From Chiloscyllium plagiosum (lineage: Eukaryota), in assembly GCF_004010195.1 (NCBI RefSeq), contig NC_057719.1:26144542-26208541 (forward strand): DNA of 64,000 nt, given 5' to 3'. The position numbers were made by a program, and so were the translations under genes. The notes beneath the pieces were generated by a model. That model had not been told where the DNA came from. It searched no databases and was given only the letters and a program-made list of their open reading frames with translations. Within the stretch, counting starts at the first letter, position 1, and each line of letters starts with the position of its first letter. Below are positions 17,289 through 57,126 of the stretch, piece after piece.

Positions 17289-18790
17289 CAGCAAGGCGGC
17301 CTTTGTGTGGAGCCGCATAAAATGGGGGAGAAACTAAATGAGTATTTTGCATCAGTATTTACTGTGGAAAATGATATATGGAAGATATAGACTGTAGGGA
17401 AATAGATGGTGACATCTTGCAAAATGTCCATATTACAGAGGAGGAAGTGGATGTCTTGAAATGGGTAAAGGTGCATAAATCCCCAGGACCTGATCAGGTG
17501 TACCCAAGAACTCTGTGGGAAGCTAGAGAAGTGATTGCTGGGCCTCTTGCTGAGATATTTGTGTCATCGATAGTCACAGGTGAGGTGCCAGAAGACTGGA
17601 GGTTGGCAAACATGGTGCCACTGTTTAAGATGGGTGGTAAGGACAAGCCAGGGAACTATAGACCAGTGAGCCTGACGTCGGTGGTGGGCAAGTCTTTGGA
17701 TGGAATCCTGAGGGACAGGATGTACATGTATTTGGAAAGGCAAGGACTGATTCGAGGTAGTCAACATGGCTTTGTGTGTGGGAAGTCATGTCTCACAAAC
17801 TAGATTCAGTTTTTTGAGCAAGTAACAAAGAGGATTGATGAGGGCAGAGCGGTAGATGTGATCTATATGGACTTCAGTAAGGCGTTCAACAAGGTTCCAC
17901 ATGGGAGACTGATTAGCAAGGTTAGATCTCACGGAATACAGGGAGAACTAGCCATTTGGATACAGAACTGGCTCAAAGATAGAAGACAGAGGGTGGTGGT
18001 GGAGGGTTGTTTTTCAGACTGGAGACCTGTGACCAGTGGAGTGCCACAAGGATCGTTGCTGGGTCCTCTAATTTTTGTCATTTACATAAATGTTTGGATG
18101 CGAGCATAAGAGGTACAGTTAGTAAGTTTGCAGATGACACCAAAATTGGAGGTGCAGTCGACAGCGAAGAGGGTTACCTCAGATTACAACAGGATCTTGA
18201 TCAGATGGGCCAATGGGCTGAGAAGTGGCAGATGGAATTTAATTCAGATTAATGCAAGGTGATGCATTTTGGGAAAGCAAATCTCAGCAGGACTTATACA
18301 CTGAATGGTAAGATCCTAGGGAGTGTTGCTGAACAAAGAGACCTTGGAGTGCAGGTTCATAGCGGCTGAACAGGCTGGGGCTGTTTTCCCTGGAGCGTCA
18401 GAGGCAGAGGGGTGATCTTATAGAGGTTTACAAAATTATGAGGGGCATGGATAGGATAAATACACAAAATCTTTTCCCTGGGTTCAGGGAGTCCAGAACT
18501 AGAGGGCATAGGTTTAGGGTGAGAGGGGAAAGATATAAAAGAGACCTAAGGGGCAACTTTTTCACCCAGAGGGTGGTACGTGTATGGAATGAGCTGCCAG
18601 AGGATGGTGGAGGCTGGTACAATTGCAACATTTAAGAGACATTTGGATGGATATATGAATAGGAAGGGTTTGGAGGGATATAGGCTGGGTGCTGGCAGTG
18701 GGACTAGATTGAGTTGGGATATCTGGTCGGCATGGACGGGTTGGACCGAAGGGTCTGTTTCCATGCTGTACATCTCTACGACTCTATGCA
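17289..18790 (+). mobile_element. CR1 (HER1-like) LINE, 5'-truncated, RT domain to 3' tail, disrupted
   Basis: [67 protein letters not shown]. Stops and frameshifts; internal deletion at ~18362. Confidence 0.95.
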
Positions 18791-19244
18791 TCTGATGTTC
18801 TCATCCAAATCATTTATATAAATGACAAATGAAAGTGGACCCTGAACACCGCTGGTCACAGGTCTCCAAGATGGAAAACAACCCTCTACAACCACTCTCT
18901 GTCTCCTACCATAGAGCCAATTTTGTAATCAATTGGCAAGCTCACCCTGAATTCCATGTGATCTAACTTTACTAATTTGTACATGAAAAAATGTGGAAAT
19001 GTGGGGAATAATAAAGAATAAAGAACAATTAAATGAACCTCCAATGCTAAACAACATTTGGGAAGAAATAATTCTGAAAGGTTTTTCAGAATCTGATGCT
19101 TATCTGACATTTTATGTTCACTTGATGCTCTCCTTCTGTTATACCCTTTCCAAAAAAGAGAAACCATATCTAACCTATTAAGCTGACTGAACCAATTTAT
19201 TACATGGTATAGAGTGATTTGTCACAATCCTCAGCTGATATCTC

Positions 19245-44445: not shown

Positions 44446-47063
44446 CTGTAGTACCTGCCACTCTCTCATTACAGTAACAAAACAGCCCCAATCGGATGGA
44501 AAGTGCCATGATGGATGGTGGGCTAGCCTAGTGTAGACAGCATCTTGACTCTGACCATCCCAAGTAATATGAGTCTGGTAGCTCTGAATGTACACACAGG
44601 CAAGGCAATGCAAAGGAACATGCAGGTAGACTCAGAGTGAGTGAGCATTGGACAGCGAATAGAGCATGGAGTTACAGCCTGGTCCAGTACAAGGTCTGGG
44701 TACATGTCCATGAGTACAGAGTGTCTTTGCTGCAGTATTACAATGATAGTAGCTGCAGTAGTAAAGGTGCAGCATTGAATAGCATGGGTCAGAGATGTAC
44801 ACTGAGGCATCCTGAGGCTGACACATATTAGGAGCTTAGGTCCAGAGATATAAGGTGCATGTGGCTGGTGCTCATAGAGCATGTTCATAGATGTTGGGAT
44901 CTGGTATCCAACATGGCCATCAGTTAGAGCATGCAGCAAGCTGAGGTCACCAACTATCTATTCTGATATGCATTTCAAGATCTCTTCATGTGCAGCTTGC
45001 TTAACCAGACAACTGAACATTAATGACGTGAGTGGACCCGCTAACCAAATGTTTAACAAACAACTCTACTTGCTGCTGCCTGTGAGAAACTCATTACGCC
45101 ATGGTCAAATCATAAAAGCTGGAGCGAGATGCTCCTGATGTACAAATAGGCCCTGTCAGACTTTGTAATTCTTCAACAAATCTCCCGACCCACTTTGCTG
45201 AACCCCTATAAGATTCCACCCATGGTTTAAAAACAATAAAATATCTTCAAGATGCCTTGCTACTTCATTGGCACACCACCTTCCTCTTAACCCTTTCTGC
45301 ACTGATCATGAACAAACCTTGATATCTTTCAGTAAATCCCTTTTATTAATTTGTCCAGTACTTCAAGCAAATAAGTTCATGCAATATACGTCCTGCTTTG
45401 TCGTAATGATAGTTGTGGCTTACAATATAGATCATCTTAACAATGTCTAAAGTTCAGTGAAGCAAAGGGATCACAGGCTACTCTCATTTGAGAGACACAA
45501 TTAATGGTGAGTTAAACTTGAGGATTTCAACACTTCAGGCAGGAAGCAAAGTTGAGAGGTAAGTTTCATACTATCGAAGAGATAGAAAGAGGTGAGGATA
45601 GTGGATTAGCCAAAATGGTCTCTGCTACTATCAAAATTGAAGAGAGGTTCAAGATGAGGTACAAGCAAAGAAGCAGTAACTGCAATGTCTGCACCATTTG
45701 AGGCAATAGATAAATTTGCAATTAAGTTGTGTCAGATTGCAACAGAGTTCGGTGAACAATTATTTATGACAAATTCAACATTTGTGGTTAAGGTGATTGA
45801 AAAAGAATAAGTTCATCCAAAATCCAGCCTTTGAACCATAAATCCCCTGGGGCTAGTGTGCTGCCAACTGTCTTTGTGGTAATGTAGGTCATGTTCATGT
45901 AACCTGTAAATAGCTCCTGTAATGCAATAAACTTGATCTTGTTTACTCAACATGACTCTTCTAGTTAGACCTAATCCACATGAGACCACTTCAGGCTTGA
46001 AGGAACCCACACACAAGACACTTGGCCACAGTTCTGAAATAATAACCACCAAAGTAACATTTCAAATCAACAGCATCAATTAAATCATGACATGTTGCAT
46101 ACAAGATCACCCTTGCACATCCCTTTATTTTTGTTTTCTATGTGCCATACATCGCGCTCTTTCACAGATCTAAGCAGGTGGTTGTGTATAACTAGTTGAA
46201 AGCTCCTGACTTCTTGTATAAGGTGACAATTCCCTAGTTTTGGACTGCATCAGCCTCAGCTTGTGCAGCTTCAGTCTGTGTTGTCTGGCTGACCGGCCAC
46301 AATAAGGATGGAGTGGCAGTGATGGGAAGATTATTACTGCCATCCTGAGAGAGGACAACAGAGTCACTGACATTTCCTTGGAGTGTTGCCTGAGCTGCCC
46401 AGTACAGTTTTGCATAGATGAGAAACTCTGAAAAGTATAGAATTAGAGATCCATTATTTGAGATGGTCTTTTGTAGGCTGTACCAATGGAGTGTCACTTA
46501 TTGAGGTGTGTGTTGAGTGGCATGGGCAAGTTGGGTCGAAGGGCCTGCTTTCATGCTGCAGACTTCTAGGACATGTTTTTCAGGATATGCAGCTGTTATA
46601 CATTGCTAATATATAGCTCCCTTGTTTATTTCAGCTTTTATTGTGTGCTGCTCTGTCTTTTCATCACGTATGATTTTAATGGTTGTAGAAGTTTCTGATC
46701 ACCCTATAACACTGACTTTTTATATAAAGTTAACAAGGAAAACATTGTCATCTTCTGAAATTTACCTTTTGTTATCTCTGAATAGCATTGATGTGTTTAA
46801 GTTCTGCACCTTCTTAGCCCTTCCCTTGTTGCCAGCATGATGGTGCTGTTGGTCACCTATGTTTTGTTCTGACATCTGGCTTGGCTTTTGGATCTAGATT
46901 TCCTGCATCTGGGTAATCAGTGATCCCAGGTATAACAAGCTATACAGAGATCAAGAAATGCTAGACAGTTTTTGGATAGGTGTGACAAACAGCAACCATT
47001 AGAAATTTTATAGGTTTGGTACATTTTGCTAACCACAACAATATTGGCCATGCTAGTGTGGCT

Positions 47064-47145
47064 GGTAGTGTGGCCGAGCGGTCTAAGGTGCTGGATTAAG
47101 GCTCCAGTCTCGACAGGGGCGTGGGTTCGAATCCCACCGCTGCCA
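47064..47145 (+). tRNA. tRNA-Leu-AAG: tRNA-Leu(AAG), 82 nt, probably a retroposed copy of uncertain function
   Basis: GGTAGTGTGGCCGAGCGGTCTAAGGTGCTGGATTAAGGCTCCAGTCTCGACAGGGGCGTGGGTTCGAATCCCACCGCTGCCA. Full cloverleaf, anticodon AAG at 47098-47100, long variable arm. Two C>T changes at CpG give G.U pairs. Only TTTCT downstream. Confidence 0.93.
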
Positions 47146-47351
47146 TTTCTGCTGATCAACTTCAACGACGCAGCTTGTTAAAATGCTGTTTCAATCCCCG
47201 CTGTATTGATGTTTAAAACAGAAGCAAAATGCGTTTGCTTCGCGGGGAATTAACTGTGGTGTGGGAAAGTGCGGAAATTTCGAAAGTGTCTGTGCTGTCA
47301 TGATCGTGTTCGCCTCCCGCGCGGAAAATCGCAAGCAGTTCTACTGTTATT

Positions 47352-47653
47352 GCGGCATGGTGGCACAGTGGTTAGCACTGCTGCCTCACAGCGCCAGAGA
47401 CCCGGTTTCAATTCCCGCCTCAGGCGACTGACTGTGTGGAGTTTGCACGTTCTCCCCGTGTCTGCGTGGGTTTCCTCCCACAGTCCAAAGATGTGCAGGG
47501 TCAGGTGAATTGGCCATACTAAATTGCCCGTAGTGTTAGGTAAGGGGTAAATGTAGGGGTATGGGTGGGGTTCGCTTCGGCGGGTCGGTGTGGACTTGTT
47601 GGGCCGAAGGGCCTGTTTCCACACTGTAATCTAATCTAATCTAATCTAATCTA
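47352..47653 (+). mobile_element. Young HE1-like SINE with (TAATC)5 tail
   Basis: CpG-rich, A and B boxes; lacks about 19 nt between the TTTCCTCC repeats compared with the 50672 copy. Confidence 0.92.
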
Positions 47654-48686
47654 AATTGCTTGTAGTGTTAGGTGAAGGGGTAAACATAGGGGAATGGGTC
47701 TGGGTAGGTTGTGCTTCGGTGGGTCGGTGTGGACTTGTTGGGCTGAAGGGCCTGTTTCCACACTGTAAGTAATCTAATGGTGTTGGCTGTATCTAAAGCA
47801 TTTAATTGCTGTTGCCCTGCCACTATGACTTCACATTTACACCGATCCTCAAGAAACGGGTTAGTCGTACGGCCATTTATCTTGTCCACAAGAATCTTCC
47901 TAAAGGCTCTACTTTGTAATGATGACTAACCTGATGAGCCTTTTTCACAATTCCTCTTCAGAAAAGTCACACAAATGTCCTTTGTGCTTGGCATCTTCAG
48001 AACAAACTGGCCAGTGGACTCTTGGAGCACTGTCTGTATGACATGAGTTAGAGTCCATTAATCTTGAAGTTAATTCTGACGTTGAGCTGATCTTCAAGAA
48101 CCTTACAAATCTTTTCTGGATCTTTCTAATTGACCATGTAAAAATCTGATGTGTTAACTCTGTGAAGTCTCTCCTTGCCAGTGACAAGCAAGACATTTAG
48201 GCCTATTTTCTCAAGATTATCTATCCCCTGATCTATGAAGTAGAACTGCACGCCTTGATTGCACAGTTGTAGGCAGCAAGCATGTCACTGGATGCCTGGT
48301 CCATAATGAGGTTTCTGTCATCTGTGGTCCTCCATTAAAAATATTGTACTGTGCCACCTTAAGCGATGTGACCCTGATTTTGTGTCAGCTTAAAACTTTA
48401 TTTTCCAAGAACATAAACTTCGCAGCTCCTGTTCTGAGAAACTGTTACTTATAAGGATTAGGGCATCCTGGCTTCCAGCTTCTGTACTGTATTGCACTGA
48501 TATTGTGTCCCAACTCATGAATGCACCTCAGCCTTTTTAACATTTATTTTGTTCTGAAAGAACTTACATTCTAATCAAAAATAAATTTGTTTTCATTTCT
48601 TCCTGGTTAATACCCTATCTACAGATCTTTCCAGCTGTCCATCTTCAAAGAAACTGGTCCTGGTGTTGGATGAGAAATTCTCTTTT

Positions 48687-50177: not shown

Positions 50178-51055
50178 AATGGTAAAGTCCTGGGGAGTGT
50201 TGCTGAACAAAGAGACACTGGAGTGCAGGTAGATAGGATGGTGAAGAAGGCGTTTGGTATGCTTTCTTTTATTGGTCAGAGTATTGAGTACAGGAGTTTG
50301 GATGAGCTCTAGGGAGAGGCTGAACAGGCTGGGGCTGTTTTCTCTGGAGCGTTGGAGGTTGAGGGGTGATTTTATAGAGGTTTACAAAATCATGAGGGGC
50401 ATGGACGGGATAAATAGACAAAGTCTTTTCCCTGGGGTCGGTGAGTCCAGAACTAGAGAGCATAGGTTTAGGGTGAGTGGGCAAAGATATAAAAGAGACC
50501 TAAGGGGCAACATATTCACACAGAGGGTGGTACGTGTATGGAATGAGCTGCCACAGGAAGTGGATTGAGCCTGGTACAATTGCAACATTTGAAAGGCTTT
50601 TGGATGGGCATATGAGTAGAAAGGGTTTAGAGGGATATGGGCCGTGTGCTGGCAGATGGGACTAGATTGGGTCGGCACGGTGGCACAGTGGTTAGCACTG
50701 CTGCCTCACAGCGCCAGAGACCCGGGTTCAACTCCTGCCTCAGGCAACTCTCTGTGTGGAGTTTGCACATTCTCCCCGTGTCTGCGTGGGTTTCCTCCGG
50801 GTACTCCGGTTTCCTCCCACAATCCAAAAATGCGCAGGTTAGGTGAATTGGCCATGCTAAATTGCCCGTAGTGTTAGGTGAAGGGGTAAATGTAGGAGTA
50901 TAGGTCTGGGTGGTATACGCTTCGCCGGGTCGGTGTGGACTTGTTGGGCCGAAGGGCCTGTTTCCACACTGTAAGTAATCTAATATCTGCTTGGCATGGA
51001 CGGGTTGGACCGAAGAGTCTGTTTCCATGCTGTACATCTCTATGACTCTATGATC
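50178..51055 (+). mobile_element. CR1 3' fragment with internal deletions, interrupted by a SINE
   Basis: RERLNRLGLFSLERWRLRGD...WNELP; 3' UTR resumes at ~50985. Confidence 0.9.
50672..50984 (+). mobile_element. Full-length young HE1-like SINE
   Basis: GGCACGGTGGCACAGTGGTTAGCAC...GGGTTCAACTCC...CCTGTTTCCACACTGTAAGTAATCTAAT. Confidence 0.93.
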
Positions 51056-53715: not shown

Positions 53716-54714
53716 AAAGGAAAGGTTTGTCTGTGTGTGAAAAAAAATTGCAGAACTGTCAATGGTATTTTCAATAAAAACTGAAACAACTGCGGATACT
53801 GTAAATCAAAGACAAAAACAGAAATTGCTGGAAAAGAACTGTTCTTAGGAAGGGTCACTCAACCTAAAACATTAACTCTGATGTCTCTCCACAAATGCTA
53901 CCAGACCTGCTGAGCTTTCCCAGCAGTTTCTAGTTTTGTCAATGATAATTTTATCTTGATAAAAGCACAACAGTATGAGCACTTTACGCCTATTCAACAA
54001 TGAACGAGAACTTAGCTAAAACATGGCATTAGCTCAGATTAATGAAAGTGAATGTAAAGCTGATGTTTGGAAGATATTTGTCATGCAGCAATGATGAACA
54101 TTGGAATGGATTTTTTGATATGCTGGAGCAGGGTGTTATAGATAGGGGCAACGTAGGGAACTTATTTTATTTGTCTTGCCTCCTATCCAGCCAGATTAAA
54201 TTTCAAATGAACTGTGTATATTTCCCAATCTCCTGCCTGTGAAGTCAATTTTTAAAGTGACTCCTGGTATACACATTATTAGATCGACATGCCAATGAAT
54301 CACTTCTGCTTACAGAAGCTGATGCCCTATACAAAGCTCAGCAGTGCCCACAGTGGAAGTTTGGAGAGAATGTTTCAGTTGAGGACTTCAGTCGTGATTA
54401 TTAGCACTTTTGCATGCATAATGGGTTTCAATACGTCTTCTTTGTTGTCAGTTCTGGTTCAAAATTGAAAGATCTGTGCCCTCATTGTCTTACTATGCTT
54501 GCCGTATCATGGAATTATACGTATAAAAATTCCTCAAGAATGATGGGTTAGCATTCTACACTGGCTGTGCCTAGAACAGTACAGTATCAACATGTGAATC
54601 ATGTAATCTGGAGCAGCCACTTTAGTCCAGCAAAGTCCATTTTTTAAGTTATATAAGAAAGTAAATATGATCCTGAGGGAACTTGACCAGGTGGATATTG
54701 AAAGCACTTTCCTC

Positions 54715-55256
54715 ATAGAGTCATGGAAACCTACAGCATGGAAACAGACCCTTCGGTCCAACTAATCCATGCTGACCAAATCTCCTAAATTAATCTAGTC
54801 TCATTTTCCAGCAGTTAGCCCATATCCCTCTAAACCCTTCCTCTTCATATACCCATCCAGATGCCTTTTGAACATTGTAATTGTACCAGCTTCCACCGCT
54901 TCCTCTGGCAGTTCATTCCATACATGCACCACCCTCTGTGAGAAAACATTGCCCCTTAGGTCCCTTTTAAACCTTTCCCCCCTCACCTTAAACTGATGCC
55001 CTCTAGTTCTGGACTCCCCCACCCGAGGGAAAAGACCTTGTCTATTTACCCTATCCATGCCCCTCATGATTTTATAAACCTCTATATGGTTACCCTTCAG
55101 CCTTCAACGCTCCAGGGTAAACAGTCCCAGCCTTTTCAGCCTCTCCCAATAGCTCAAACCCTCCAACCCTGGAAACATCCTTGTAAATCTTTTCTGAGCC
55201 CTTTTAAGTTTCACAACATCCTTCCTACAGGAGGGAGACCAGAATTGCACGCAATA
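54715..55256 (-). mobile_element. CR1 3' fragment
   Basis: MRGMDRVNRQGLFPRVGESRTRGH...WNELP. Confidence 0.92.
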
Positions 55257-56237: not shown

Positions 56238-56975
56238 TTTTTGTCATTTACATAAATGATTTGGATGCGAGCATAAGAGGTACAGTAGTAAGTTTGCAGA
56301 CGACACCAAAATTGGAGGTGTAGTGGACAGCGAAGAGGGTTACCTCAGATTACAACAGGATCTTGATCAGATGGACCAATGGGCTGAGAAGTGGCAAATG
56401 GTGTTTAATTCAGATAAATGCGAGGTGCTGCATTTTGGAAAAGCAAATCTTAGCACGACTTTTACACTTAATGGTAAGGTCCTAGGGAGTGTTGCTGAAC
56501 AAAGAGACCTTGGAGTGCAGGTTCATAGCTCCTTGAAAGTGGAGTCGCAGGTAGATAGAATAGTGAAGAAGGCGTTTGGTTTGCTTTCCTTTATTGGTCA
56601 GAGTATTGAGTACAGGAGTTGGGNNNNNNNNNNNNNNNNNNNNNNNNNNNNNNNNNNNNGGGAGTCCAGAACTAGAGGGCATAGGTTTAGGGTGAGAGGG
56701 GAAAGATATAAAAGAGACCTGAGGGGCAACTTTTTCACGCAGAGGGTGGTACGTGTAAAGAATGAGCTGCCAGAGGAAGTGGTGGAGGCTGGTACAATTG
56801 CAACATTTGAGAGGCATTTGAATGGATATATGAATAGGAAGGGTTTGGAGGGATATGGGCTGGGTGCTGGCAGGTGGGACTAGGTTGAGTTGGGATATCT
56901 GGTCGGCATGGACAGGTTGGATCGAAGGGTCTGTTTCCATGCTGTACATCTCTCTGACCCTGTGACTCTATGACA
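56238..56975 (+). mobile_element. CR1 3' fragment containing a 36-N gap (56624-56659)
   Basis: KFADDTKIGG, LQQDLDQM..WAEKWQM.FNSDKC, tail GACTCTATGAC. Confidence 0.93.
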
Positions 56976-57126
56976 CTCTGCCTGAAATTGTGTGGATTGT
57001 TGAATTGCTTGGAGTCTGCAACATTTAATTTCTCTTTGATAGGTACTCATCTTGGTCTCAGCCTTATTAACAATGGAGCCACTGATAAGTTATTTTCCAA
57101 CTATTAGGAGGTTAGGTGAGGAGTTT

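Follow-up and report, generated by a model that had tools for sequence, protein, structure and literature searches.

In the shark Chiloscyllium plagiosum, a complete tRNA-Leu(AAG) gene is joined to a SINE through a 203-nt trailer derived from sequence that flanks the genes of a tandem tRNA-Leu array. The resulting 598-nt unit splits an older SINE. The unit is likely a copy of an unprocessed tRNA-Leu precursor that was joined to the SINE and inserted as one piece. It belongs to a class of fusions, found across the genome, in which a tRNA or U6 sequence lies 5′ of a SINE, and it was probably made when a reverse transcriptase jumped from the 5′ end of the SINE onto the pre-tRNA. The window referred to below is the whole 64,000-nt stretch of contig NC_057719.1 that was analysed, and the 3.56 Gb C. 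plagiosum assembly was examined using genome-wide pattern and similarity searches.

Structure of the unit and of the SINE that it splits

The unit and the two parts of the host SINE are made up as follows.

47043..47055, + strand: left remnant of the older, 5′-truncated host SINE, ending CTA (13-mer comparison with SINE copies)
47056..47063, + strand: 5′ junction, about 4 extra nt and a 4-6 nt pre-tRNA leader (comparison with array genes)
47064..47145, + strand: tRNA-Leu(AAG), complete, with no encoded CCA (Rfam RF00005, 53.4 bits; ARAGORN)
47146..47348, + strand: 203-nt 3′ trailer, a copy of the flank of the tandem tRNA-Leu array (comparison with array loci)
47349..47351, + strand: three extra bases (ATT) at the junction of trailer and SINE
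47352..47626, + strand: HE1-like SINE, near full-length, with a 19-nt internal deletion
47627..47653, + strand: (TAATC)n tail, 5.6 repeats
47654..47778, + strand: right part of the host SINE, of a different subfamily and 86.8 % identical to the inner SINE

The small RNA is thus 5′ of the retroelement, both are in the sense orientation and the 3′ tail is intact. As originally predicted, the tRNA is complete; it is the only tRNA that Rfam and ARAGORN find in the window and is 94-95 % identical to the array genes. The predicted (TAATC)5 tail was also recovered, and the + strand of the unit has no run of four or more T (T4+) over its 598 nt, which is true of just 91 of 1269 sampled windows of this length. 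The first T4+ downstream of the unit is at position 47941.

Other parts of the original description had to be modified. The sequence between the tRNA and the SINE, described as a unique, CpG-rich flank of about 206 nt, is indeed CpG-rich (observed/expected ratio 1.35 versus 0.24 for the whole window), but it is not unique, with 460 candidate places in the genome, and it consists of the 203-nt trailer and three extra bases. The 8 nt preceding the tRNA were taken to be a leader. Their final 4 nt match the conserved bases -4 to -1 of the array. When the eight are compared with 24 array genes, no exact match exceeds 6 nt, and the remaining bases (about 4) belong to a repeat in which a 9-nt word from the tRNA start occurs again. 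The near full-length, HE1-like SINE was recovered with its tail, but it has lost 19 nt internally. The trailer ends in TT only, with no T3+ run at the SINE junction, and the ATT that precedes the SINE head is found again after the tail; this ATT is either a variant of the SINE leader or copied target-site bases. A structured RNA in the trailer was considered and rejected, as the fold of the tRNA plus trailer has a z score of -1.2, with 22 of 200 shuffles equally good, and Rfam reports only the tRNA.

The host SINE is 5′-truncated and about 140 nt long. In 13 of 26 SINE copies, the 13 nt of this left remnant run on unbroken into AATTG, and CTA is present at both outer junctions of the unit, in agreement with the prediction that an older SINE had been split. 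This CTA would reflect either microhomology to the tail or a target duplication of 3 nt. The window unit appears to have arrived in one event, with some doubt for this copy arising from the repeated ATT. A second fusion (L071) and the window fusion (47043-47660) each landed in the same stretch of a host SINE; that stretch is similar to the tail repeat and is possibly a preferred target.

To judge from sequence likeness, the inner SINE is a putative HE1-type element. Its head includes motifs resembling A and B boxes by eye and scores under the Rfam tRNA threshold. The 3′ 50 nt or so match three LINE-like ends, located at positions 18725, 54732 and 56901, with about 80 % identity, and because this segment is common to both, we infer that the SINE was primed by a partner LINE. 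These LINE-like ends are presumed to be CR1; a LINE-like fragment searched against Pfam gave no domain match. Decayed CR1-like LINE 3′ ends with the tail of the SINE lie at window positions 18395-18815, 54690-55110 and 56570-56990, and another full SINE copy, of a different subfamily, lies at 50673-50984.

The array source and the dispersed relatives

Among the 460 candidate places found with the spacer, 40 were scored, and the 39 other than the window are 86-95 % identical to it. The array comparison set consisted of 30 spacer loci retrieved from these 40. All but two of the 30 (28 loci) run past +203 (numbered from the tRNA 3′ end) into a common flank, where no SINE is present. The upstream flank is also common to 24 of these 28 array loci, and the remaining four (L002, L010, L023 and L024) are cut within the tRNA, with foreign sequence upstream and a normal flank downstream. 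Tandem Leu-Val tRNA units of 3.1-3.9 kb are seen on two contigs. Large Leu-Val tRNA arrays on unplaced contigs (L108 and L109) include many genes with stem or anticodon changes. The first T4+ after the tRNA is at +131/132 in 20 of the 28 array loci, earlier in three and at +226/228 in five. The trailer in the window does not have the T4 at +132 that is the first T4 in those 20 loci.

Including the window, five dispersed fusions carry this trailer, each starting 3-6 nt before the tRNA. One, L025 on C19, is a second example of the complete unit, joined at the same base as in the window and set in unrelated flanks. The trailer is joined to a SINE at about +196 in L035 (on C32) and at about +60 in L106 and L107, and a search with the junction pattern matched only the window, L025 and L035. 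The dispersed relatives end in TAATC tails; copies that begin near the same leader and end in this way had been predicted, and L025 and L035 are among those found. The flanks of the fusions do not continue the array, and three weak flank matches are repeats inside array loci. Because the relatives start near the tRNA, end in TAATC and have unrelated flanks, segmental duplication is excluded, and the fusion flanks are also unlike each other, where compared, and unlike the array flanks. The dispersal and the unrelated flanks agree with the predicted insertion, in one piece, of an unprocessed Pol III pre-tRNA carrying a SINE tail of LINE type.

The T4 at +132 is absent from all three long fusions and from 5 of the 28 array loci (p=0.012), and the three fusions lost it through three different lesions. 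This loss shows that Pol III transcription mattered, and it is equally compatible with an extended precursor and with a transcript that read through into a SINE. By contrast with other fusions, of which 12 of 16 have their junction at a T3+ run, none of the five with this trailer does (p=0.006).

The fusions do not make up a single family. Monophyly of the window and L025 was rejected for both the trailer (p-AU 0.030) and the SINE (p-AU 0.021), as was monophyly of the three long fusions (p-AU 0.006 and 0.022, respectively); pairs with L035 were not rejected (0.25 and 0.17). The SINE in L025 also has four subfamily markers that are common to a free-standing SINE (L042) and absent from the window SINE. 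As the window and L025 are not sisters in either half, they represent separate events and there is no single new SINE family. The predicted birth of a composite SINE headed by tRNA-Leu is thus not upheld, the copies being polyphyletic in both halves. A composite family with one master was rejected on the AU tests and on the five copies, which differ in their junctions or haplotypes.

Fusions of tRNA and U6 with SINEs across the genome

The class was defined by searches for SINE heads preceded, at a distance of up to about 60 nt, by the 3′ end of a tRNA, which gave 4 and 52 pattern matches; only sense joins were sought and a SINE head was required. Rfam found a tRNA in 18 of the 40 loci scanned, and these together with the window, L025 and L035 bring the number to at least 21 Rfam-validated tRNA-SINE loci, with at least the Leu, Ser, Cys, Arg, His and Lys isotypes represented. 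From the 52 matches, 34 were scanned using Rfam, yielding 14 tRNAs and 20 that scored under the threshold (mostly other repeats and a few tRNA fragments). Eleven loci (L113-L123) were picked by hand, partly for the appearance of a tRNA end. About 9 of the 14 tRNAs from the 52-match search look Leu- or Ser-like, with a long variable arm.

The fused pre-tRNAs have trailers of 3-203 nt. One, a tRNA-Leu(CAA) (L116:1164-1283), has kept its intron, leader and trailer, and the tRNAs in L072 and L074 are 5′-truncated. The SINE follows a T3+ run in 12 of the 21 fusions but at only 5 of 44 background heads (p=2e-4), and with the hand-picked loci removed these values are 7 of 14 and 4 of 40 (p=0.004). 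A T4+ run is located between the tRNA and the SINE in seven of the 21 validated fusions. Pol III should not cross T4+ runs.

A repeated word of at least 5 nt brackets the complete unit in 8 of 20 fusions versus 10.5 % of 380 mismatched pairs (p=6e-5). No excess of duplications was found around the SINE alone (p=0.88), but the same rule applied to 22 free-standing SINEs gave p=0.16, so the SINE-only test has little power. On C13, three filled copies were found among nine paralogous sites that are without both the tRNA and the SINE, showing insertion as one piece. Also on C13, L110-L112 (G000:C13:53368001-53398000) carry a tRNA-Leu-SINE fusion in a local repeat that has been tandem-duplicated at least three times, and a fourth junction, on C76838, is similar to them. 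By eye, L073, L114 and L035 lie inside older decayed repeats, both sides of which continue across the insertion. Several loci (L003, L081, L095 and L096-L098) have short local duplications resembling the 9-nt repeat in the window; these lie at a 5′ end or a junction and involve the tRNA start, the variable arm or the SINE head. Each fusion is likely to be a one-off and not the founder of a new SINE family.

A prediction that U6 should be found in the same arrangement was tested, and a near-complete SINE head is located within 20 nt downstream of U6 in 11 of the 30 best loci (48 were scored). One further U6 among these 30 is joined to a truncated SINE (L138) and one to a CR1-like end (L133). 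The U6 copies in L128, L135, L136, L140, L145 and L148-L153 are joined after a T-run to near-complete SINE heads. In L131 (G000:C17:47236055-47236161), U6 is followed by three A's and a sequence that by eye is tRNA-Lys-like. The nearest 700 nt contain no SINE, and this is possibly a U6-tRNA chimera.

Routes of formation and wider meaning

For the window unit, we consider a template jump the probable route. The source would be an array gene that had lost the T4 at +132, with a transcript reaching the T-rich stretch at about +203, which may have been a weak stop or a trimmed end. The CR1/HER1-type reverse transcriptase of the partner LINE would prime on the SINE tail at the target, copy to the SINE 5′ end and then jump end-to-end onto the pre-tRNA. 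The join would be made at the cDNA stage instead of by RNA ligation, and the fused cDNA would enter the older SINE as one piece. A jump is also expected to yield fusions at the usual array terminators, but nothing beyond chance was found there: exact patterns, which miss mutated copies, gave no matches for +132 and two chance matches for +228. The lack of T3+ junctions among the five fusions with this trailer also counts against it, as does the finding that, in both the window and L025, the tail is followed by a repeat of the bases that precede the SINE head, as for a duplication around the SINE alone. L2 insertions are known to carry additional junction bases taken from neighbouring sequence (PMC4245944), and bases copied in this way may explain the ATT.

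Read-through was originally proposed as the main route. A SINE would have inserted at +203 of an array gene without the T4 at +132, and the composite RNA made by Pol III would then have been copied by the LINE machinery. The missing T4, noted above for all three long fusions, favours this route, the junctions of the long fusions are not at T-runs and the window copy has no terminator between the tRNA and the SINE. SINEs do insert into the arrays (L027, in antisense, and L109). In L025, the 6-mer TACTGT at the end of the trailer, before the SINE head, is found again after the tail, like a duplication that was carried over. However, a source gene that has its native flanks and a SINE within the trailer was not found among the 28 loci of these incompletely assembled arrays, nor by junction patterns, nor by a pattern of tail plus flank (three matches, all ordinary SINEs without the trailer; another pattern gave none). 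The assembly breaks up the arrays and may therefore not include every source gene. Read-through also requires separate SINE insertions at the identical base in two gene clades, with one copy of each, and it leaves unexplained both the seven of 21 fusions with an internal T4+ and the U6 fusions (11 of 30). Since the trailer in the window has neither the T4 typical of the array nor a T-run at its end, read-through retains some probability for this copy, but overall we judge it unlikely.

The remaining explanations have much less in their favour. Had the SINE inserted first, duplicating CTAAATTGC of the host, and a tailless pre-tRNA later entered the left duplicate, this would account for the presence of 8 of the 9 bases of CTAAATTGC, with the tRNA and trailer lying between them. 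There is a duplication of the CTAAATTGC stretch at the same host position in L071, and mammals are known to have pre-tRNA retrocopies without a tail (work cited in PMC4476161). This scenario is nevertheless very unlikely, as a free-standing copy ending at +203 occurs in none of the 28 non-fused loci, the window junction recurs in L025, and across the class it is whole units that empty sites and duplications surround. Moreover, a single L2 insertion can by itself acquire additional 5′ bases from its flank (PMC4245944). Joining of a cut pre-tRNA to SINE RNA by RtcB or another ligase before retroposition has a precedent in U6/L1 (PMC6789731), the sense orientation fits, and cleavage could have produced the ends that are joined at about +60, +196 and +203. 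However, RtcB requires a 5′-OH and is blocked by a triphosphate (PMC6789731), and 11 of 12 U6-SINE joins begin at the SINE head, which would presumably be triphosphorylated. Because the tRNA searches demanded a SINE head, the tRNA set does not bear on ligation, which we regard as highly improbable. The chance of an assembly artefact or a duplication at the DNA level is negligible, given divergent, independent look-alikes with unrelated flanks on other chromosomes and a host SINE that is split precisely.

Chimeras of this general kind are known. In the platypus (Mon-1) and in Anolis (AnolisSINE2), U6-SINE or U6-L2 chimeras with 1-9 bp duplications have been attributed to template switching by stringent LINEs (Doucet et al. 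2015, PMC4476161). They too have a Pol III RNA joined in sense 5′ of a SINE mobilized by a stringent LINE, with some of the small-RNA parts 5′-truncated, and according to that paper switching may be limited to U6 and U6atac among the snRNAs surveyed. The passenger in the window unit differs from U6 in being an unprocessed pre-tRNA that brings an internal promoter. The oligo-U junction of template-switch chimeras is matched by the 12 of 21 class members with a T3+ junction, but the window trailer ends only in TT; in the other features compared, the window unit agrees with the U6-SINE chimeras. The 21 human tRNA/LINE-1 chimeras, in which the tRNA was co-inserted between duplications (bioRxiv 10.1101/2025.02.02.635956), are described there as mostly half-tRNAs in antisense, attributed to twin priming, whereas the shark fusions, recovered by sense-only searches, mostly have complete tRNAs in precursor form, in sense and with a full-length SINE. 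In the U6/L1 chimeras made by RtcB, an oligo-U end is likewise joined in sense to retroelement RNA, but a 2′,3′-cyclic phosphate and a 5′-OH are needed and L1 is usually truncated (PMC6789731), whereas the SINE is mostly complete here. The addition of an RNA-gene head 5′ of SINEU, tree-shrew SINEs and Bov-tA through template switching (Kojima 2015, PMC4494074) resembles our unit in placing a new small-RNA head before an existing SINE. Those cases became amplified families with masters, whereas by the Kojima criterion the shark fusions are independent one-offs. A table row in PMC3747384 lists the HE1 V-SINE and HER1 LINE pair of sharks and rays, which the window SINE resembles in a possibly tRNA-like head and in a 3′ end common to the CR1-like LINE ends; the part of PMC5499810 available contains nothing on HE1. 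The class of mechanism is already described for U6, which limits surprise, but a survey of mainly open-access literature turned up no earlier description of pre-tRNAs recurrently fused in sense to SINEs, in sharks or elsewhere.

Stringent LINEs are thought to mobilize only RNAs with their own tail, and genomes in which only tail-bearing RNAs are moved therefore have few processed pseudogenes (PMC4476161). Recurrent fusion of pre-tRNAs with SINEs bypasses this tail requirement and carries tRNA genes with their promoters out of the arrays. The step proposed for the replacement of SINE heads is seen here as repeated events in one genome, and complete SINE 5′ ends provide a means to distinguish a reverse transcriptase jump from ligation by RtcB. 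The fusion loci map the ends of tRNA precursors, and counts of tRNA genes will be inflated by them. More speculatively, the CR1/HER1 reverse transcriptase might jump routinely in this species from the SINE 5′ end onto nascent Pol III RNAs, making such jumps the main exit of intact tRNA genes from their arrays, with the fusions recording where pre-tRNAs start and stop. On this tentative view, which we think doubtful as a whole, fusions free of terminators, such as the window unit, would use the promoter within their tRNA to make tRNA-SINE RNAs and would be working dispersed tRNA genes and proto-dimeric SINEs. In any case, a reverse transcriptase jump onto a tRNA precursor would scatter whole tRNA genes.
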